Notes under the pieces: model-generated
Told to the model about the DNA's origin: nothing
Seen by the model: only the letters and a program-made list of their open reading frames with translations
Databases searched by the model: none
Made by a program: the position numbers and the translations under genes
NCBI GenBank assembly: GCA_964508365.1
Contig: CAZDTP010000014.1
Coordinates: forward strand, 8,190 to 72,189
Direction: 5' to 3'
From: an uncultured archaeon
GTDB lineage: Archaea > Asgardarchaeota > Lokiarchaeia > Sigyniarchaeales > SOKP01
DNA length: 64,000 nt
Shown: piece after piece, positions 13,201-29,800 of the stretch
How the letters are laid out: every line of letters starts with the position of its first letter
Position numbering within the stretch: position 1 is the stretch's first letter

Positions 13201-14523
13201 TTATTGAAATTTAGGTAAAAACTCACTTTGCAATTCTTTCATCTCGCTAAAAATTCTTTCAGCTATCTCAAAACTCCCTACATTAGGATCTATGGCTAAT
13301 GCATTAATTGCTACTTCTTTAGATTTAGTAAGGATCGCTTCAACGCACAGATCTTGGATACTCGCCTCAATTCGAAGTAGGGCTGCTATATTTTTCGGTA
13401 AATTTCCCCATTTAATTCCGCGTATACCAGCTTTACTAACTGTTACTGGACACTCAATAATCAAATCTTGTGGTAAATTATCTATGATTCCATTGTTTGG
13501 AATGTTGACAGCGCTCTCATAGGACGGTTGGTTAGTAACCATCGCTTCAATAATAGGAACTGCTCGTTCTCCTGATATTCCCTTTGAGAGCATACCTTTT
13601 TTAAGATACTTTCCCTCTTTAAGTCGCTTATAATTTCTCATAACCTTTCTATAGATATGTTCACCATGCTTTTCAGTTCTATTAATCCAATCTACCATAT
13701 CTTGTGTTTCAGTAAATTCCTCACCAAACTGTAAATATTCACCTAGATGATTATCCCCTACATACGGAAAATAACCAAATCTCTTGAAAACTTCAAATGT
13801 TAACGAAGAAAATTCGAACCTATCTTCATGTTGTTTAAAATACTCTGGAGCTATCTTGTTAAATTTCGGCATTAAATCCATTCCAGTAGAGATTTCCTCA
13901 AGCCCCATTAAAAATCCAAAATGATTTAATCCATAAGGTTTTAGTTTTAAATTCTCTAAATTTTTATTGAGCATTTGAGGTATATGGTAATTGAGAAACC
14001 CAATTTGATGGCATAACCCAATAAATTTAAGATTTGTTGTTGTTCTTTTGATAGCTAAGCATACTCTTGCCATTGGATTAGAAAAATTTATAAAAAAAGC
14101 GTTTGGACATAAATTATCGACATCTTTTACAATATCGATAATTGGAGGTATTATTCTAAAAGCATGCATAGTTCCCCCTGGACCACCACATTCGCCTAAT
14201 ATTTGTTTTGAGTTGTATTTTCGTGGAATTTCGTAATCTTCTCTCCACAATTTAAAGCGCTCTCCTACTTCAATGGAACTTATTATGAAATCTGCACCTC
14301 TTAATGCATCTCTACGGTTTGTAGTGTGTTCAATAATAAATTTGTCGTTATGGATTTTGTTTTCGGTTATAACTAATTCATAAATTATATTTAAATGTTC
14401 TTTATCGATGTCGTGTAATACTATCGTCGATCCATGCAAAAATTCACTTTGAAAGAGATCTAATAAAGTAGAAGGTCCAAAGGAGGTACTACCTGCCCCT
14501 ATTAAAACTATTTTACTTTTCAT
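13201..14523 (-). CDS. Glycoside hydrolase family 4 (NAD+/Mn-dependent, alpha-galactosidase/glucosidase-like)
   Basis: KIVLIGAGS Rossmann motif, GECGGPGG, INFSNPM, GLCH. Confidence 0.9.
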   Translation of the reverse strand: MKSKIVLIGAGSTSFGPSTLLDLFQSEFLHGSTIVLHDIDKEHLNIIYELVITENKIHNDKFIIEHTTNRRDALRGADFIISSIEVGERFKLWREDYEIPRKYNSKQILGECGGPGGTMHAFRIIPPIIDIVKDVDNLCPNAFFINFSNPMARVCLAIKRTTTNLKFIGLCHQIGFLNYHIPQMLNKNLENLKLKPYGLNHFGFLMGLEEISTGMDLMPKFNKIAPEYFKQHEDRFEFSSLTFEVFKRFGYFPYVGDNHLGEYLQFGEEFTETQDMVDWINRTEKHGEHIYRKVMRNYKRLKEGKYLKKGMLSKGISGERAVPIIEAMVTNQPSYESAVNIPNNGIIDNLPQDLIIECPVTVSKAGIRGIKWGNLPKNIAALLRIEASIQDLCVEAILTKSKEVAINALAIDPNVGSFEIAERIFSEMKELQSEFLPKFQ

Positions 14524-14728
14524 TGTTCTCTAGTATTATTTAAGTAAATTGTATCTATTAGTGATACAATGTCTTTTGTAAAGTATAATGAGTTTAAAGA
14601 GTTATTAATTAAAAATTTGTAAAACTATTATGAAAGATTTTTCAATTAACAAAACAAATGGGAATTTACACCCATAATATTTATTAGTGTACACTTATTT
14701 CCTTTTTATAATAATGAATTTTTCACGG

Positions 14729-14846
14729 CATAATACTGATTCATGGGTTGGCTGTAAGAGCGCCATTATTCCCTTAGTAACAGTATTATGAAGAGAATAA
14801 ATCCTTTTTTCTCTCTTTTTCTTTTTAATTTTTGGATTTATTCTCT
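14729..14846 (+). promoter_or_regulatory. Structured RNA-like element, copy 1 (two adjacent stem-loops)
   Basis: CATAATACTG 14729-38 pairs with CAGTATTATG 14781-90; AGAGAATAAATCC 14792-804 pairs with GGATTTATTCTCT 14834-46 around a 29-nt pyrimidine loop. Strand assigned from the downstream ORF. Confidence 0.55.
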
Positions 14847-14922
14847 GAGTAAAATGACTTTCAATAATAAAAAAAAAAGAGGGATAAGGGCTTAATTCTT
14901 ACCGTAAATTCTAAATAAAAGA

Positions 14923-15117
14923 ATGGAGGTGAAAAAAGAATTGGCAGATAAAATTGATCCTGAATCAATATTGGAGTATTATAAAGATTGGAATTCTGAT
15001 CTAGCCCCTATAATGATGTGTTTTGATATCTCAGATGCCTATCCGGGTCAAATTGAAAGCGAGGATCAAAAAAAAATAGCTTATCTGAGACAAAAATACA
15101 AAAAACTGGCTAAATAA
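14923..15117 (+). CDS. Small hypothetical protein (64 aa; alternative TTG start at 14941)
   Basis: GGAGGTGA at 14925-32 could be the SD for TTG 14941; shares KELxDKI and PG(Q/E)IE with the ORF at 15557. Confidence 0.6.
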   Translation: MEVKKELADKIDPESILEYYKDWNSDLAPIMMCFDISDAYPGQIESEDQKKIAYLRQKYKKLAK

Positions 15118-15349
15118 TTTTTTTTTCAATTTATTCTTCTCTATTATTTATTAGCTCCTAAAGCTAAGATTTTGGAAATTTTACATTGATACAATTTCTA
15201 GGTTAATTAAATTGATATATATTCATTTTTAGATGAATTTAAAAATTACTTTCCTAAATTCATTTTATTCAAATGATTTTTTATAAAATGGGAATAATAA
15301 GTGAAACATTTAAATAGCATCCTCGTTATATTTATTCTAATGATCTTAA

Positions 15350-15476
15350 ATAATACTACTAAATACTCAATTGTAAGAGTTATAAGCCCTTTATTGGTTG
15401 TAGTATTAGTATTATAGATGAGAGCCGATCCTTTTCGATCTTCTTTTTAATCTTTTCTTGGATTTACTCTCTCATC
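15350..15476 (+). promoter_or_regulatory. Structured RNA-like element, copy 2
   Basis: ATAATACTA 15350-58 pairs with TAGTATTAT 15407-15; GATGAGAG 15417-24 with CTCTCATC 15469-76; ATCC/GGAT closes a 28-nt pyrimidine loop; TGTAAGAG, CCCTT and CTTTTTAAT shared with copy 1. Confidence 0.55.
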
Positions 15477-15556
15477 AAAGAATTTAAATATAATTAAATT
15501 GAGATCATAAAGGATTCCGGCACCTCAGGAGAAGTAAAAAAAAAGGAGGTGAAAAA

Positions 15557-15763
15557 ATGGAAAAAGAAGTTCTTGATAAAATTGAAAATCAGATTACCTT
15601 AGAAAATAATATGACTCCTTTAAAGGAAAAAAACAAACACACAAACGAAAGTACCTTCTGGAAATATCTAGATCATTCAAACTGGATTCCAGGAGAAATT
15701 GAAGTTGAGGAAGAAATCAATAAAGATTATGATTGGTGGAAAAGAAAATCTATTAAGAAATAG
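15557..15763 (+). CDS. Small hypothetical protein (68 aa)
   Basis: Strong SD GGAGGTGA just upstream of the ATG; PGEIE motif; basic C-terminus. Confidence 0.65.
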   Translation: MEKEVLDKIENQITLENNMTPLKEKNKHTNESTFWKYLDHSNWIPGEIEVEEEINKDYDWWKRKSIKK

Positions 15764-15780: not shown

Positions 15781-16956
15781 CTAATTGAGAGTTCTTTCTA
15801 TTCTTTCTAAGGCTTCTTTTAATTTTTCAATTGGTTGGGTTAAAGCGAATCTAACAAAACCTTCTCCATAAGTGCCAAAGCCCGTACCGGGAGTTAAGAT
15901 TACACCTTCGTTAATTAACTTTTTAATGAACTCCATGCTATTTGTTTCTCCTTTCGGTATGCGAGTCCAGACATAAAAAGTCGCTTTAGGCTTGTCCGTG
16001 TTCCAACCGATATCATTAAGACCCTTTACCAAAACATCGCGCCTTTCCTCATATATTTTTACATTATCTCTTACGATTTTAGGTTTTTCTTCTGATTTAT
16101 ATTCATTTAAACCTTTTATCACAGCTTTTTGGATAAAAACTGGGCATCCCGAATCAATGTGAGACTTAACCTTCCTTAATCCACTAATAATATCCTTATC
16201 CCCCACTGCCCATCCGCACCTAAATCCCGTCATGCAGAACATTTTTGACGAGCTATTAATTTCTATGTGATTCTGATCTATCTGCAAAAGCGTTGGAGCG
16301 ATATAATCCTCGTAAGTGAATTCTGAATACGGATTGTCATAAACAATGATGAAATTATAATCCTCTGCGTTATCTGCGGCTTCTTTTAGAAACTCCTTCG
16401 TTGCTATTGCGCCAGTTGGATTATTTGGGTAATTTAAATACATCAATTTAGCTTTTTTTAAGATTTTACTTTCAATAACTTCAAAATCGGGTAAAAAATC
16501 ATTTTCTCTTTTTAAAGGAATCGAATATATTTTTCCATCACATAATTTAGTGGCACCATTTTCATATACGGGATAACCGGGATTAGGACATAATACAATA
16601 TCTCCGGGATTAACAAACACTCTAGCGATATTAGCTACTCCCTCCTTTCCTCCTATTACGTTAGTTACTTCATCATTAGCATCAAATTTTAAATTAAATC
16701 TGACCTCATACCACTTCTGTACAGCCTCTCTAAAATCTTGTTCTCCCTTACTTGATGGGTAATTTTGATTTTCGGGGATTTTTACTTGATTAATTAGTTC
16801 ATTAATAATCATATCTGGAGTGGTTAAATCCGGGTCACCTATCCCTAAGGGGATGAAGTCTATTCCTTCCTTTTTCCTTTCATTGATTAGTTGCTCAATT
16901 TCTGCGAAAATATATCCTGGTAACTTATTAATCCTATTTGCATATTTTATTCTAAT
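15781..16956 (-). CDS. dapL: LL-diaminopimelate aminotransferase-like PLP enzyme (class I/II); start codon non-canonical or damaged
   Basis: YLNYPNNPTG, DNPYSE, SSSKMFCMTGFRCG, PGTGFG. The frame extends past ATG 16812 through YANRINKLPGYIFAEI..LGIGDPD to ATT 16956, which follows a TAA. Confidence 0.8.
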   Translation of the reverse strand: MRIKYANRINKLPGYIFAEIEQLINERKKEGIDFIPLGIGDPDLTTPDMIINELINQVKIPENQNYPSSKGEQDFREAVQKWYEVRFNLKFDANDEVTNVIGGKEGVANIARVFVNPGDIVLCPNPGYPVYENGATKLCDGKIYSIPLKRENDFLPDFEVIESKILKKAKLMYLNYPNNPTGAIATKEFLKEAADNAEDYNFIIVYDNPYSEFTYEDYIAPTLLQIDQNHIEINSSSKMFCMTGFRCGWAVGDKDIISGLRKVKSHIDSGCPVFIQKAVIKGLNEYKSEEKPKIVRDNVKIYEERRDVLVKGLNDIGWNTDKPKATFYVWTRIPKGETNSMEFIKKLINEGVILTPGTGFGTYGEGFVRFALTQPIEKLKEALERIERTLN

Positions 16957-17191: not shown

Positions 17192-17605
17192 ATGGGTCGT
17201 CACACGAGGTTTAGACAAGTTAAAGATCCTCCACAAAATTTCTATTTTCAATCTGAAAATGAAAACTCATCAGTCGGATTAAATATCGCAGAATTCGAAG
17301 CCTTAAGATTAAAACATTACATTTCCTTAACCCAAAAGAGTTCCGCTGATACCATGGGAGTGTCCCAACCTACTTTTTCGCGAATTTTAGAGAAAGCTCA
17401 CGAAAAAATTACGCAAGCCTTAATAGAAGGAAAAGACATCCGTGTTTATGGAGGGAAAGTTAATCTTAAGCAAGATTATAAGGGTTACGGATGTTTAGAT
17501 TGTGATGAAGAATGGGAAGATGAATTAGCTTCAAAAAATCGCAAAGTGAACTGCCCCAATTGTAACAGTAAAAAAGTCTATTTTTTAGTAAGAGAACCAC
17601 TATAA
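17192..17605 (+). CDS. DUF134 (UPF0251) HTH protein with C-terminal zinc ribbon
   Basis: EFEALRLKHY..LTQ..ADTMGVSQPTFSRIL..A; CLDC..CPNC. Confidence 0.85.
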   Translation: MGRHTRFRQVKDPPQNFYFQSENENSSVGLNIAEFEALRLKHYISLTQKSSADTMGVSQPTFSRILEKAHEKITQALIEGKDIRVYGGKVNLKQDYKGYGCLDCDEEWEDELASKNRKVNCPNCNSKKVYFLVREPL

Positions 17606-17735: not shown

Positions 17736-18845
17736 ATGGATAATGAACATGATAAAGTATGGTATAAAGCAGCGCGAACTATTGTCAAAGCAGGACAACT
17801 TCCTATGGTAGTTAATGATGATCTTATTGAACTATTGAAACTGATTATGACTGATGAACAAGCTGGGTTTATCACAGTTTTCAGAAAACCGTCGCTAAGT
17901 ATTGATCAGTTAAAAGACAAGACTAATATGGATGAGGAAGCTTTAGCACAGATCTTAAATGCTCTAATGGACAACGGAATTATCGTTGGCGTTCCTAGTA
18001 AAAGATCAGGTATTATGGTATATAGACTTCTTGGACCGTTCCCCGGTCTTTTTGAAATGCAGTTCATGAGAGGCGAAACGGGAGAAAAACAAAAGAAACT
18101 TGCTCAGATTTTCGATAAGATTTTTAAGGAATTGAGTAAAAAAACTCAAAAAAATTATGATAATATCGTAGAACTATATAAAAATTACCCTCCAATAACA
18201 AGAGTTGTTCCTGTTGAAGAAGAGATAGAAGATGTTCCTGTTGATAAGATATTACCTCATGAGGAAGCTTCAAAAATAGTAGATAAGTATGATGATATTG
18301 CTCTGGTTCATTGTTACTGTAGACATGAAAAAGATTTGCTTGAACAACCGTGTACCGTAACAGAAGAGAGATTAAATTGCTTTTTATTAGGAAAAAGCGC
18401 TCAATTTGCTATTAAACATAACTTTGGTAAGGCAATATCGAAAAAGAATGCAAAATCAATAATAAATAAAGCGTCTGATGAAGGACTCGTTCACAAGGCG
18501 TTCCATGTTCACCTTAAACCAGAACTAGATGAAGAAGCTATTTGCAACTGCTGTAAATGCTGCTGTGGGATATTTTCACTTTTTTGGAAGGGTATTTCGC
18601 CTTACCATTGTTATACAAGTTATTTAGCAGAAGTTGATGAAGATTCTTGCGTAGGATGTGGTACATGTGTAGAGAAGTGTCCTATGGAAGCAATTGATTT
18701 GGTTGAAAATATTGCGGTAATTAATGGTAGTAGATGTATTGGTTGTGGTATTTGTGTTCACCATTGTCCCGAAGAAGCAATGAAATTAAAACGAACAGGG
18801 AATCGAGAAGTTTTTGTGCCCCCTCCAAAATTAAAAATAACTTAA
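17736..18845 (+). CDS. 4Fe-4S dicluster-binding protein
   Basis: HCYCR, CNCCKCCC, CVGCGTCVEKCP, CIGCGICVHHCP. Confidence 0.85.
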   Translation: MDNEHDKVWYKAARTIVKAGQLPMVVNDDLIELLKLIMTDEQAGFITVFRKPSLSIDQLKDKTNMDEEALAQILNALMDNGIIVGVPSKRSGIMVYRLLGPFPGLFEMQFMRGETGEKQKKLAQIFDKIFKELSKKTQKNYDNIVELYKNYPPITRVVPVEEEIEDVPVDKILPHEEASKIVDKYDDIALVHCYCRHEKDLLEQPCTVTEERLNCFLLGKSAQFAIKHNFGKAISKKNAKSIINKASDEGLVHKAFHVHLKPELDEEAICNCCKCCCGIFSLFWKGISPYHCYTSYLAEVDEDSCVGCGTCVEKCPMEAIDLVENIAVINGSRCIGCGICVHHCPEEAMKLKRTGNREVFVPPPKLKIT

Positions 18846-25159: not shown

Positions 25160-26604
25160 TTATTTCCCCCTCCTAATTTGATATTTTTCAGTCGGACATG
25201 TGGTCCCCCTAGCCATACAGGAGCAGCTTGCTGTGGTTCTCCCTTACCACAATATCCGTGAGGTGAACTAAAATCTTTAGAAACTCCATCAACACTACCC
25301 AATATACCATATGTAGTTAATTCCAGAACGGGTCGACGAATCATAGTATCGGTTACTTCCCCATTTTCAATTAAGTACACTTCAAGCCCTACATACTTAC
25401 TTTGAAAACGACGGTCATCTATATTCCATTCAGTAAAGCTCTTCATGTATATTCCTTGTTTAACATCATCAATTAATTCTTCAAACGTAAAATCTCCAGG
25501 AGCAAAATAAGTATTAGCCATCCGAATAATGGGCTCTCTTGTATAAGCCACCGCCCTTGCCGCAGCATTGGATTGAGTGTTATATCTACTAGCATATTCA
25601 CGGTTTAGAAATAATTCATTTAACATGCCATTTTTTATTAAATAACGTGGACGAGCTTTTACACACTCATCATCATAGAGATAAAAACCAGAATTACCTT
25701 TTTGTGTTGGGTCATCTATTATTGTGACTTGCTCGCTACCCATTTTAATTTCTCCGAGCCTTTCGTTTTCCAGTAAATCTATATAAAAAGATTCTCCTGC
25801 TTGGGCTCCCTCTCGACCTAAAATTCGATCTGCTTCGCTAGGATGGCCTACATTTTCATGAGCCATTATTCCAGCAACCTCACCACTTACTACTACATCG
25901 ATTTGGTTGATATCTTTTTCAATTGCATTTCGCGCTGCTTTAACTAAACTAATATTATCCTCTAAAATTCGTTCAACCACATTTTCTTCTTCAATCCATT
26001 CCCAACCCCCAGTTCCTCCTAAACTTAACATTCTTTGTTCTCCTCCCGCTTTACCTTTAGCCGTATTAAAAGTGTGAGCAGAAATTATTGAATTTTCTGA
26101 TTCCACTTTCGAACCTTCATTTGTAACTATATATTTTTGATCAGAGTATAGATCCAATAATAGCGTTCTGGTAGGTAACTTAAATCGAAATTCTTTGTTC
26201 AAAACTTTATCTAAATCTATCAGAAAATTCTGTTTTTCTTCAATTGATATTTCCTCAAATTTTATTTTTACAGGAGATTTCCATTTTGTTTGAACTACTT
26301 CTTCTTCAGAAAATGTTATCGGGATTTTTCTTTTACTAGCTTTAGCTAATTTAATTGCTTCTTCTATCCCATTTTCAATTCCGGTCTTTGTTAAACTTGC
26401 GGTAGAACAAAATCCCATACCTCCATTAGCTAGTACTCGAATCGCAATTCCATTTGAATAAGTAATTCCTCCACCTAGTATAACACCATTTCTTGCAGCA
26501 TAACTTTCATTTCTTGAGGCAACGACTCTTGCTTCGATATAACTTGCTCCACGAGATGCACCATAATCTATAGCAAAATCTGCTAAATCTTTTCCATTCT
26601 TCAT
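25156..26604 (-). CDS. tldD: TldD family metalloprotease
   Basis: HENVGHPSEAD (HExxGH), YDDECV, PIIRMANTYF, CGKGEP..GGPH. Confidence 0.9.
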   Translation of the reverse strand: MKNGKDLADFAIDYGASRGASYIEARVVASRNESYAARNGVILGGGITYSNGIAIRVLANGGMGFCSTASLTKTGIENGIEEAIKLAKASKRKIPITFSEEEVVQTKWKSPVKIKFEEISIEEKQNFLIDLDKVLNKEFRFKLPTRTLLLDLYSDQKYIVTNEGSKVESENSIISAHTFNTAKGKAGGEQRMLSLGGTGGWEWIEEENVVERILEDNISLVKAARNAIEKDINQIDVVVSGEVAGIMAHENVGHPSEADRILGREGAQAGESFYIDLLENERLGEIKMGSEQVTIIDDPTQKGNSGFYLYDDECVKARPRYLIKNGMLNELFLNREYASRYNTQSNAAARAVAYTREPIIRMANTYFAPGDFTFEELIDDVKQGIYMKSFTEWNIDDRRFQSKYVGLEVYLIENGEVTDTMIRRPVLELTTYGILGSVDGVSKDFSSPHGYCGKGEPQQAAPVWLGGPHVRLKNIKLGGGNK

Positions 26605-26861
26605 TATTAGAATCCTAATTTCTCTAATATTTTTGATAAATCATATGATATTTATTTTAATAATATTAGCTTTTTTTAAACGATAAAGCCTAACAAATTA
26701 AGAGAATTTTCGAGCATACTATATTATAAAAAAAAGAAATAAACCTAATCTGTCTCCTTTTTTAAATTATCTTAATCACTTAACATATTAAACTCAGAAT
26801 AGTTGAGATTAAAACCTCAAAAATAATTATATTAAATAGAAAGTAATTTGTATTACTAAAT

Positions 26862-29800
26862 TTGGTAAGTAAATTGCCTAGTCCAAAAAAAACCAAGAAA
26901 AAAACGCCTATTGATGAAAAGCAAAGCTCTCTTTCTTCATTCGTAGAAAAAAAAGAAACTAAGAAGGAAGAAGAAAGCAGTAGGATATTAAAAGAAGAAA
27001 TAAAGGAACCGATAGACCAATTAAAAACCCAAATACCCCCTAAAACAAAGGATATAGACGAAAAAATAAAAGCAAAAGAAAAACCGGCGTTAAAAAAAGT
27101 TACAAAGAAGGTTTATTTCAAGAGTAATGGTACACCCTTTGGCTTAAAAGAAGATGGTATACAACTGCGAGATATTAAAAGAGAATCTGTAAGTTCGAAA
27201 TATATTCGCTATCTAATTGAAAGGGGAGAAATCGTAGAAGATTTGGAAAGAGGTTTGCTTTTAGATGTAGATTATGATGGTGGATTAAATAAAGCTTATT
27301 GTAAATTTTACGATTTGGATACCAACGATATAAAAATATGGATTGATACAACCGACCACGAGCCTTATTGTTTGAGTAAAGAACCAATTTCAATACTTGA
27401 ACAGCTAACTTATAAAGATCAAGGGGGGAAGATAAATAAGCTTGTAAATTACGAGGGTTTTAAACGATTCGAAGAAATTAAGAAGTTTGATTTGCTTAGC
27501 GATAAAGAAATACCTATAACGAAGATATATGGAAAAACTCCTATAGATATAGGAGGATCTGGACTGAATATTAAAAATATCCTAGCTGAAAACGAGAAAA
27601 AAGCGTGGGAAGCAGATATTCGATACCATTTAAATTACATTTTAGATCGACAGTTAATCCCGGGACTCATTTATCGAATTAATAGTGGTAAACTTAAAAA
27701 AATTGATTTTAAAGAAAGTTCTGAAGAAACTAAGAAGTTAACAAACGAACTAAGAACTCTGTTTAAAGATGAAAAGCCAGAAATGCAAGAATTTTCTGAG
27801 AAGTTCATAGATATTTTCCTTACACCCATTCCTGATGTGAAACGTTTAGCGATGGATATCGAAGTAAAAATAGGAGAACAGGATTATAGTATTCCCGATG
27901 CTCACCTTGCAAAACAAGAAATTATTTCCATATCATTTGTAGCTTCAGACGGTTTAAAATTGGTGTATATTTTAGAGCGCGAAGAATTTACTTTTGATAA
28001 ACTCCATGCAGAATTCCCAAATGACGCAAAACTCTACTTCTTTAAATCTGAAAAGGAATTATTAATTGAATCCTTTAGAATTTTATGGGAATACCCTGTG
28101 ATTATTACATTTAATGGAGACAATTTTGATTTAAATTATATGTTTCACAGAGCAGAAAGATTGAAAATAGACAAAGATTTGAATCCAATACATGTAAAAA
28201 GGGGTTTTGGAATAATGGCGAAGTCAGAATGCGATTTAAGGAAAGGAATCCATATAGATATTTTTAACTTTTTCTTTAATCGAAGTATTTCAGGATACGC
28301 ATTTGGTGGATCCTATCAAAATGCTTCCTTAAATGCTATCAGCGAAGCGTTATTAGGTGAAAAAAAATACGAGCACGAAGAAGACATTCACGATATGGAA
28401 TACGATGTTCTTTCTTGGTATAATCTTAAAGATTCAATATTAACTTTAGATTTAACTAAATTCAATAATTCCTTAGTATGGAATTTGATCATACTACTAT
28501 GCAGGATAACAAAATTGCCGATTCACGATATGATACGCAGGCAAATTTCGACATGGATACAAAATATCTTCTACTTCGAGCATCGTAGAAAAGAAATTCT
28601 CATTCCGAGAAAATCCGAAATATCAGAGGCTAAGAAAGGCGGAGAATTAATGTCAAAATTTGACGATAAGAAATTTCAAGGTGCTTATGTTGTTGAACCT
28701 GTTCCTGGAATTCATTACAATGTAGTTGTTATGGATTTTTCTTCCTTATATCCTTCTATCATAAAAGAATTTAATTTATCTTATGAAACTGTTCTCTGTC
28801 CTCACAAAGATGACGAAGATAACCTAATAAAAGGAACTCCGTATCATATCTGTACTCATAAAATGGGGATCTTTGCTTATGTGGTTGGTTTTTTCCGGGA
28901 TACAAGAGTAAAATACTTTAAACCGAAATCAAGCGATAAAACTCTAACTCAAAAACAGAGAAGCTATTATAATACTATCCAACAAGCGCTTAAAGTGTTC
29001 ATTAACGCAAGTTATGGTGTATTTGGATCTCAAAATTTCCCCCTGTTTTGTTTACCTGTCGCAGAAAGTACAACAGGAATTGGTCAATACTCTATAAAAC
29101 AGACGATACTGAAAGCAGAAGAACTTGGAGTTAAAGTGCTTTATGGGGATACAGATAGCGTTTTTCTTCTCAATCCATCTAGTTCTCAGATGAAAGAAAT
29201 ATCAGATTGGAGCAAAAAAGAACTAGATTTAGATTTAGAAGAAGAAAAAACGTACCAATTCTTAGCTCTTTCACAAAGAAAAAAAAATTATATAGGAATA
29301 TACAAAGATACTAAATTTGTTGATATTAAAGGATTGGTAGTAAAAAAGAAAAATACACCAGATTTTATTAAAAAAGTTTTCAGTCAACTGATAGAAATTC
29401 TTAAAAAAATTACTAACGATGAAGAGTTTAAATTAGCGAAGAAGAATATTATAGAAATTGTGAAAAGTAATATGAAAAAAATAGGACAAGCTGACGCTTT
29501 CACATTAGAAGATTACGCCATAAATATCGGTTTACAAAAAAGCCTTAGCAACTATACAAAAGTTATACCTCAGCATGTTAGAGCTGCTAACGCATTCATA
29601 GAGATGGAACTCAACCAAGCACAAGCTAACGCAAGCGATGCTGAAATTCATGCAGCTGAAATTCATGCAATTAAAAACAAGTATCAAAAAGGAGATACAA
29701 TAAAATTCATAAAAAGCAAAGGATCCGTTGGAGCAAAAGTTATTGAGATGGCAAAACTTCAAGATATAGATTCCCAAAAGTATCGTGAGCTTTTAAAATC

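Follow-up and report, generated by a model that had tools for sequence, protein, structure and literature searches.

The 64,000-nucleotide stretch of DNA analyzed here (the window) comprises positions 8190-72189 of contig C14 (CAZDTP010000014.1) in a 4.07 Mb assembly with 31.8% GC (GCA_964508365.1), obtained from an uncultured archaeon of the Lokiarchaeia. On its + strand lie two leader elements, leader 1 at 14729-14846 and leader 2 at 15350-15476, each consisting of two adjoining hairpins and each located ahead of a small open reading frame (ORF), sORF1 and sORF2, respectively. The flanking genes are a divergent family-4 glycosidase gene upstream (13201-14523, - strand) and a convergent aminotransferase gene downstream (15781-16812, - strand). 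Our analysis confirms that both repeated RNA elements are real, and that they represent an uncatalogued cis-acting leader RNA with covarying stems encoded on the + strand. Each leader opens with a conserved, apparently leaderless mini-ORF of 25-30 codons, whose last codons specify Leu/Ile/Val and form the 3' arm of the first stem (P1). For the second stem (P4), the 5' arm together with the U-rich loop is referred to as strand X, the distal purine-rich strand as Y, and the X:Y duplex as P5. The parts of the two leaders are as follows (SD, Shine-Dalgarno sequence; BRE, B recognition element).

14680-14687, + strand: TATA-like box TTTATTAG, 34 nt 5' of the mini-ORF 1 ATG, kept in orthologs
14714-14791, + strand: mini-ORF 1, peptide MNFSRHNTDSWVGCKSAIIPLVTVL, stop TGA at 14789-14791, frame intact in all orthologs
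14729-14790, + strand: P1 (stem 1) of leader 1, 10 bp, CATAATACTG (14729-14738) paired with CAGTATTATG (14781-14790)
14745-14747 with 14771-14773 (GGG with CCC) and 14750-14752 with 14762-14764 (GGC with GCC), + strand: inner helices in P1 of leader 1
14792-14846, + strand: P4 (stem 2) of leader 1, 13 bp, AGAGAATAAATCC (14792-14804) paired with GGATTTATTCTCT (14834-14846)
14869-14902, + strand: distal strand Y of leader 1 (AAAAAAAAAAGAGGGAUAAGGGCUUAAUUCUUAC), purine tract AAAAAAAAAAGAGGGA (14869-14884) plus TAAGGGCTTAATTCTTAC (14885-14902)
14925-14932, + strand: SD GGAGGTGA before sORF1, 79 nt after stem 2
14941-15117, + strand: sORF1, TTG at 14941 to stop at 15115-15117, 58 aa, start 8 nt after the SD
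15303-15317, + strand: BRE/TATA GAAACATTTAAATAG, TATA starting 31 nt before the mini-ORF 2 ATG, identical in all 7 genomes with copy 2
15340-15417, + strand: mini-ORF 2, peptide MILNNTTKYSIVRVISPLLVVVLVL, stop TAG at 15415-15417
15350-15414, + strand: P1 of leader 2, ATAATACTA (15350-15358) paired with TAGTATTAT (15406-15414), with further inner pairs
15417-15476, + strand: P4 of leader 2, GATGAGAG..ATCC (15417-15431) paired with GGAT..CTCTCATC (15460-15476)
15499-15526, + strand: distal strand Y of leader 2, assigned from sequence complementarity and folding
15545-15552, + strand: SD GGAGGTGA before sORF2, 69 nt after stem 2
15545-15763, + strand: sORF2 with its SD, ATG at 15557, 68 aa

P1 of leader 1 encloses GGCTGTAAGAGCGCC and CCCTT, and its 3' arm is made up of the last mini-ORF codons (Thr, Val, Leu, stop). 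The P4 loop of leader 1 (14805-14833) is 29 nt long, pyrimidine/U-rich and contains CTTTTTAAT, with T runs at 14805-14810, 14816-14820, 14822-14826 and 14829-14833. Strand Y of this leader is an alternative partner (P5) of the loop and, more weakly, of the P4 5' arm, and the minimum free energy (MFE) fold of the full leader uses the X:Y pairing. In leader 2, the first base of P4 is the G of the mini-ORF 2 stop codon, and the U-rich loop (15432-15459, 28 nt) has a T5 run at 15444-15448. Its strand Y contains TTGAGATCAT, complementary to the 5' end AUGAUCUUAA, followed by AAAGGATT, complementary to the P4 apex, and CACCTC (15521-15526), which from complementarity and folding appears to be an anti-SD segment.

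All features that an initial annotation of the sequence had listed as the shared architecture of the two copies are present, including the compensatory change of a G-C pair in stem 1 of copy 1 to A-T in copy 2, and a second stem with a pyrimidine loop of 28-29 nt. The distance of about 80 nt from element to SD is correct for copy 1 only, the spacing in copy 2 being 69 nt. Likewise, of the two ORFs described as 64-68 aa, sORF2 has the expected 68 aa, while sORF1 most likely has 58 aa from TTG 14941, because relatives have an ATG at this position and the homologs are annotated with 58 aa. The ATG at 14923, giving 64 aa, overlaps the SD at 14925-14932. Inspection by eye of a distant subgroup revealed just one in-frame start near the SD, a GTG inside GGAGGTG. 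The initial annotation overlooked both mini-ORFs, as well as the association with leuS, FrhB-like and acyl-CoA dehydrogenase genes described below. Two other readings of leader 1 were discarded: an ORF from the ATG at the stem junction (14788-14895) is not conserved and stops after 4 codons in distant orthologs, and a C/D-box is ruled out by the lack of conservation of the CTGA after stem 2.

The folds are more stable than expected from composition, with z-scores against dinucleotide shuffles of -4.8 for copy 1 and -3.1 for copy 2. RNAalifold applied to 20 orthologs of copy 1 returned four helices, i.e., P1, two small inner helices and P4, in which 98.3% of the cells are paired compared to 41-52% when the partners are slid. 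Four base pairs in this alignment have changes on both sides, and the covariation score of 0.126 (0.085 in shuffles) was reached by none of 500 shuffles. The inner closing pair of P1 is AU in 9 and GC in 8 orthologs, and the helix just inside P1 has UA in 12 and AU in 7. In 30 distinct orthologs, 99.5% of the P4 cells are paired, and one pair is found as UA, UG and CG. The P1 arms also match across classes, as cognate arms pair at -13.5 kcal/mol versus -8.7 kcal/mol for non-cognate arms and are the better partners in 25 of 28 cases. All one-sided changes in the stems give G-U on the + strand, and the structured RNA is therefore read from that strand.

A covariance model built from the 20 copy-1 orthologs only (R1) matches copy 2 with 38.6 bits (E 1.4e-5 in the window, 9e-4 genome-wide), which confirms that the two copies are paralogs. 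R1 also detects a third copy, on contig C56. The designation as an uncharacterised cis-regulatory RNA in the initial annotation stands, as the Rfam search (E<=10) gave chance-level matches only, all far below the gathering scores. A second covariance model (R2), which covers P4 plus the downstream motif, finds exactly three members in this genome: the two copies in the window and a third on contig C56, about 80 nt upstream of the archaeal-type leuS (contig C56, 2337-4331, + strand), which encodes leucyl-tRNA synthetase (LeuRS). A blastn search of the leaders against their own genome gave no further copies, so covariance models are needed to find them.

Within the same genus, the copy-1 leader and sORF1 are found in 23 of the 24 genomes searched, at 66-94% DNA identity, and weaker R1 matches in congeners lie before leuS or a gene of the FrhB/FdhB family. 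Copy 2 and sORF2 are confined to about six close relatives. Across the family of the host in the Genome Taxonomy Database (GTDB; family f1), R2 members occur in 75 of 101 genomes at E<=0.001 and in 86 of 101 at E<=0.01 (two samples), spanning 8-9 of about 13 genera, and none was found in 18 genomes searched from the other three families of the order. The leader unit always faces the downstream gene, at a distance of 60-100 nt. It is not tied to small ORFs, since it also precedes leuS, FrhB-like and acyl-CoA dehydrogenase genes. Four candidates (L026, L062, L073 and L074) look false, being coding sequence or weak in score; L026 and L062 were inspected. This genome has two LeuRS genes, the archaeal-type gene on C56 with the leader and a YPYPSSDLH-type gene on C33 (about 26000-27933, - strand) without it; in another genus, a leader ending in ..KVLLLLLL precedes a LeuRS gene of the YPYPSSDLH type (L102).

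The protein homologs and the related contigs come from metagenome-assembled genomes (MAGs) deposited as "Promethearchaeota archaeon" or "Lokiarchaeota archaeon", and every leader carrier seen is an uncultured MAG. The sequencing runs listed for the locus are DNA metagenomes only, with no RNA run among them, mainly from salt-marsh, soil, aquatic and sediment samples. One contig encoding a 95% identical sORF1 (DATKTW010000074.1, L123) was deposited as "Candidatus Nanopelagicaceae bacterium", which probably reflects the misbinning or mislabelling of a Promethearchaeota contig.

The presence of ORFs played no part in the choice of 39 usable R2 matches, which come from eight genera; 38 of them have a mini-ORF with an ATG start and at least 20 codons that ends just before P4, compared to 8.3% of dinucleotide shuffles, although the nominal P for this presence is overstated because the sequences are related. 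Insertions and deletions within the mini-ORF are +3, +3, +3, +12, -3 and -6 nt, and the first one past the stop is +2 nt. Orthologs of copy 2 differ by whole GTA/TTA triplets, i.e., Val and Leu codons, and the number of these triplets varies even among close relatives (L004-L009 compared to window positions 15395-15414) as a microsatellite-like polymorphism in the length of the codon run. The other two frames of the mini-ORF tail contain stops or read as Tyr/Ser. In the leaders checked for promoter and SD, a TATA box starts 34 nt (range 31 to 36 nt) upstream of the mini-ORF ATG in 8 of 8, and no SD precedes this ATG. A TATA box at this distance implies a leaderless or near-leaderless mini-ORF, and would place the transcription start at or near the ATG.

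Two departures from this pattern were seen. In one genus (g20; L091, L092 and L094-L096), sORF1-type leaders have lost the usual stop, and the mini-ORF extends 3-4 codons into the P4 5' arm, with the tail ..IRSIIKRE and a stop in GAATAA; a terminating ribosome would here sit deeper on strand X. A leader before an FrhB-like gene in genus g18 (L105, G063:C48) is the only sampled one in which no ATG-started mini-ORF can be recognised; it may be decayed, or translation may begin at a different codon.

The last mini-ORF codons are Ile, Pro, Leu, Val and Thr in copy 1 and Leu and Val in copy 2. As they constitute the P1 3' arm, the 5' arm is made of early codons, and codons for Asn-Asn-Thr complement those for Val-Leu-Leu. 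The composition of the codon run differs with the downstream gene, as seen from the mean number of codons per last ten codons of distinct peptides.

leuS leaders (n=15; three genera, both LeuRS types): Leu 6.5, Ile 0, Val 0.5; tails such as ..LLQALLQLLL and ..DLLAVLLLLL
FrhB-like leaders (n=5): Leu 1.4, Ile 5.2, Val 2.4; tail ..SIIIVVVLII
Leaders of the second small-protein family, in which sORF2 is placed by its IP[AG]E motif only (n=10): Leu 4.9, Ile 0, Val 4.0; tails of the ..VVVLVVVL type
sORF1 family leaders (n=26): Leu 1.5, Ile 1.7, Val 2.1; also Pro and Thr

The single acyl-CoA dehydrogenase leader has the tail VVVVDVVVVLL. This match between the codon run and the downstream gene is the strongest argument that a ribosome reads the codons.

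Strand Y is kept downstream of P4 in all classes, with the consensus UUGAAAGAG..AUAGGUGGG. The complementarity of the pyrimidine loop to a downstream purine tract, which the initial annotation had pointed out, is both real and conserved in tests of the X:Y duplex. Cognate X and Y pair at a mean of -26.5 kcal/mol versus -18.5 kcal/mol for non-cognate strands, and the cognate strand is the better partner in 33 of 34 representatives (permutation p<1e-4). Compared to dinucleotide-shuffled Y the mean z is -4.96, to which the loop contributes with z -2.8 and the 5' arm with z -1.8, and the natural Y beats the reversed Y in 33 of 33. In unconstrained MFE folding, P5 was chosen in 7 of the 8 full leaders folded, while copy 2 of the window keeps P4. 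P5 is thus well supported as complementarity that has been conserved, but less so as covariation in the strict sense. An additional helix between the 5' end AUGAUCUC and strand Y GAGAUCAU was rejected as a family feature, as it reaches significance in just 5 of 33 representatives, one of them being copy 2.

The two folds differ in how they present the U tracts: the fraction predicted to be unpaired is 0.9-1.0 when P4 forms and falls to 0.1-0.3 when P5 forms. The geometry of the junction is also constrained. The mini-ORF stop lies 0-4 nt upstream of X, the P4 5' arm has a median of 13 nt, and 59 of 65 distinct leaders have a run of at least five T in the loop, the first of which starts a median of 24 nt after the stop. 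This distance is roughly what the front edge of a ribosome and the rear edge of a polymerase take up together. When the stop codon is in the A site, the ribosome would touch a polymerase on the T run and cover most of the 5' arm.

From these sequence comparisons, we consider it likely that each element is a ribosome-read sensor of Leu/Ile/Val, in which the ribosome position selects P4 versus P5, i.e., an attenuator of archaeal design. Attenuator-like was one of the options listed in the initial annotation, and is the best fit among them. Transcription would start at the mini-ORF ATG or a few nt before it, giving a leaderless 25-codon mini-ORF. Its last Leu/Ile/Val codons, as the P1 3' arm, would pair with the early codons of the Asn-Asn-Thr type, and its stop would abut strand X. 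Strand X could then either pair with the nearby 3' arm to form P4, with the U tracts exposed in the 28-29-nt loop, or with the distal Y to form the more stable P5, with the U tracts buried. The position of the ribosome while the polymerase makes these strands would decide the fold. If the ribosome is at the stop or on the last codons, it would cover the base of X and disfavor P4; if it has stalled further upstream, or been released, X would be free to form P4. For the output, our best guess is that P4 is OFF and P5 is ON. In P4, the U tracts would be free for 3'-end formation, either intrinsic or assisted by aCPSF1/FttA, and in some members Y would be available for masking of the start region. 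Oligo-T acts as a termination signal for archaeal polymerases, and accessible U tracts are used by aCPSF1/FttA.

The sign of such a switch is close to an even call, tilted slightly toward a switch in which, with charged tRNA in sufficient supply, the ribosome reaches the stop, P5 forms and transcription reads through, as opposed to starvation switching the gene ON. Read-through at sufficiency is favored because a ribosome would meet the first hungry codons 8-10 codons ahead of the stop, where a stall would leave X free, and by the catabolic targets (acyl-CoA dehydrogenase and perhaps the FrhB-like gene). The classical alternative, in which starvation gives read-through, is favored by leuS being a target.

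An output at the level of translation might apply to some members through anti-SD segments in Y, but is not general. In some sORF1 groups, forcing P4 lowers the predicted accessibility of the SD. In the window copies, the predicted SD accessibility is the same in both states and independent of the loop, which weighs against the attenuator reading. The SD of copy 1 is about 0.5 unpaired in every state (unconstrained and blocked folds), and that of copy 2 is predicted to pair with CACCUC and not with the loop. No obvious SD was found near the start codons of the leuS and FrhB-like members in the sequences examined. Masking of the SD or start is therefore unsupported as a common output, being absent in the window copies and lacking an obvious SD to act on in the leuS and FrhB-like members. 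The thermometer offered in the initial annotation fares no better, as the element is not of the fourU type and SD accessibility does not depend on the loop.

Several other observations weigh against attenuation. Most stem positions are invariant within the sORF1 ortholog group, and P4 has no double-changed pair in the 30-ortholog alignment. Any AU-rich helix will by default encode Leu, Ile, Tyr and Val, and leaders that are related to each other cannot be counted as independent samples. The codon-gene match is judged on the other classes, since the targets in the window, sORF1 and sORF2, are hypothetical proteins. In this genome, the ValRS, IleRS and MetRS genes and the second LeuRS gene are without such a leader. 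The complementarity of the 5' arm to Y is weak in copy 1 (group z -0.9), and P5 may there be only a loop-purine pseudoknot that coexists with P4. Column by column, P5 of the sORF1 group is 79.5% paired compared to 68-70% when slid by one column, as U-rich and A-rich strands pair easily. Finally, a canonical terminator, with a hairpin followed by a U run, is present in neither fold, and no consistent U run follows P4 or P5; any termination output must thus use archaeal oligo-U or factor-dependent rules.

Among the other explanations, the one that survives best is a leader RNA that senses directly, as a metabolite riboswitch, a tRNA-binding T-box analogue or an operator for a protein such as Lsm, with the mini-ORF as a by-product of AU-rich helices. 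The P4 apex and loop are highly conserved across paralogs (AAAUCC, CUUUUUCUUUUAAA, GGAUUU), suggesting sequence-specific recognition, U-rich loops are typical Sm/Lsm sites, and a leader before an aminoacyl-tRNA synthetase (aaRS) gene recalls T-boxes. We nevertheless regard direct sensing as unlikely. The Rfam search gave no riboswitch or T-box family at threshold, and the interior of P1 is wholly different between the paralog classes, leaving no common pocket. This lack of a conserved ligand pocket, with a stem 1 interior that differs between paralogs, argues against the riboswitch considered in the initial annotation. Direct sensing also leaves unexplained why the ATG, the frame, the triplet indels and the fixed stop position are preserved, and does not account for the association of Leu runs with leuS and of Ile/Val runs with the other genes.

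Slightly less probable still is that P1 and the 5' part of P4 make up an independent small RNA gene of about 95-120 nt, whose transcript stops at the T runs of the loop, with the ORFs transcribed from their own promoters, perhaps the loop TTTTTAAT. The strong upstream promoter and the T5-T6 runs located 16-40 nt after P1 fit this explanation, and oligo-T alone can terminate archaeal transcription. Some bacteria have terminated attenuator RNAs that act in trans (PMC7968998). However, the P4 3' arm and Y lie past the T runs and yet co-vary with the upstream strand, so that one RNA must at least sometimes contain all of them. The unit is also always oriented towards the gene 60-100 nt downstream. 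A short terminated RNA would be expected from an attenuator anyway.

A further proposal, which we consider very unlikely, is that the mini-ORFs encode functional hydrophobic micropeptides, either type I toxin-like or membrane peptides, and that the folds control only their own translation. Small ORFs with short hydrophobic tails are present in the leaders, some members have 15-19 hydrophobic residues (e.g., ILVNVLMSLSIIIVVVLII), the mRNA is structured, and the 5' end of copy 2 can pair with its downstream region. However, the hydrophobic run is only 9-10 residues in the window copies, the peptides vary greatly from class to class outside the positions constrained by RNA pairing, and the enriched amino acid tracks the downstream gene. 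No sign of the type I toxin-antitoxin cassette suggested in the initial annotation was seen, though no search aimed at an antisense RNA or promoter was made; the peptide varies with the gene, and the G-U pattern disfavors the - strand as the structured one. Least probable of all, to the point of being extremely unlikely, is that the inverted repeats are DNA operators of a dimeric transcription factor flanking a TATA-like loop, since in spite of perfect 10-13-bp repeats and a loop with TTTTTAAT, the one-sided changes always leave a G-U pair on the + strand, where the opposite strand would have an A-C mismatch, and the paralogs have bulges, co-varying outer stems and unconserved outer half-sites.

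As an attenuator, the family resembles bacterial leader-peptide systems but is without one of their defining features, the hairpin-plus-U terminator. A close counterpart is pheM-pheST of E. coli, where an upstream ORF rich in cognate codons precedes a tRNA synthetase gene and is followed by alternative folds, as for the Leu runs and leuS. Unlike here, pheM is SD-led and followed by a GC hairpin and U-run terminator, whereas the Asgard mini-ORFs look leaderless and the U tracts are in the loop. The leuL, ilvL (ilvGMEDA) and ivbL (ilvBN) leaders likewise have Leu or mixed Leu/Val/Ile runs, are multivalent, and have these codons in an arm of the first helix. However, they control biosynthetic operons that are ON in starvation, while the targets here are a synthetase, FrhB-like, acyl-CoA dehydrogenase and small-protein genes, and the codons reach the stop codon.

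In tnaC-tnaA and the Rho-dependent upstream-ORF attenuators mgtL and corL, the access of a termination factor to the nascent RNA depends on where the ribosome is at the end of a short ORF. With tnaC, a catabolic operon is induced when an amino acid is abundant. A comparable factor-dependent route through aCPSF1/FttA would be our best guess for the leaders studied here. Unlike these leaders, tnaC senses free tryptophan in the exit tunnel and not tRNA charging, and to our knowledge there is no Rho in archaea. The ermC and cat leaders, where stalling remodels hairpins that mask the ribosome binding site, are similar in that an anti-SD is present in Y of several sORF1-type leaders (CCUCU) and of copy 2 (CACCUC). 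However, they depend on drugs, and here SD accessibility is predicted to shift in some members but not in the window copies. T-box riboswitches share the long structured leader that precedes aaRS genes and reports tRNA charging. The present leaders differ in that a specifier loop and a T-box sequence are both missing and Rfam gives no T-box match even at E<=10, and sensing would go via the ribosome.

Leader-peptide attenuation is a textbook bacterial mechanism that needs coupled transcription and translation. We know of no archaeal example, and full-text literature searches found no report of leader-peptide attenuation in archaea. We lean towards regarding these leaders as the first ribosome-mediated, amino-acid-sensing attenuation in Archaea, in which a leaderless mini-ORF with Leu/Ile/Val codons would gate the display of oligo-U by a two-state RNA, and bacterial logic would be placed on an archaeal, eukaryote-like termination (aCPSF1/FttA, oligo-U). 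If so, Asgard archaea would use the translating ribosome as an amino-acid gauge, and transcription and translation would be functionally coupled in the closest prokaryotic relatives of eukaryotes. The control would cover leuS, genes linked to branched-chain amino-acid catabolism and two small-protein families, making sORF1 and sORF2 part of a branched-chain amino-acid response in amino-acid-fermenting organisms. The leaders would also offer a natural setting in which to study the regulation of termination in archaea (oligo-U, aCPSF1/FttA).

sORF1 is predicted to fold as a three-helix protein (predicted local distance difference test score, pLDDT, 80), and a Foldseek search of the model against PDB gave no match at E<=0.001 (best E 3.6). 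All its homologs are hypothetical proteins from Promethearchaeota-type MAGs. sORF2 has weak similarity to sORF1 (pairwise E 2e-4), and neither protein has a Pfam match. Behind Val-rich leaders of several genera (L098-L101, L106 and L108-L111), we found a second family of 45-61-aa proteins that end in ..IAW and carry an F.IPAE motif. These have no Pfam match and no BLASTP similarity to sORF2, though both carry the IP[AG]E motif. Further downstream, the window encodes a DUF134 protein with a C-terminal zinc ribbon (17192-17605), followed by a 369-aa Cys-rich 4Fe-4S protein (17736-18845).

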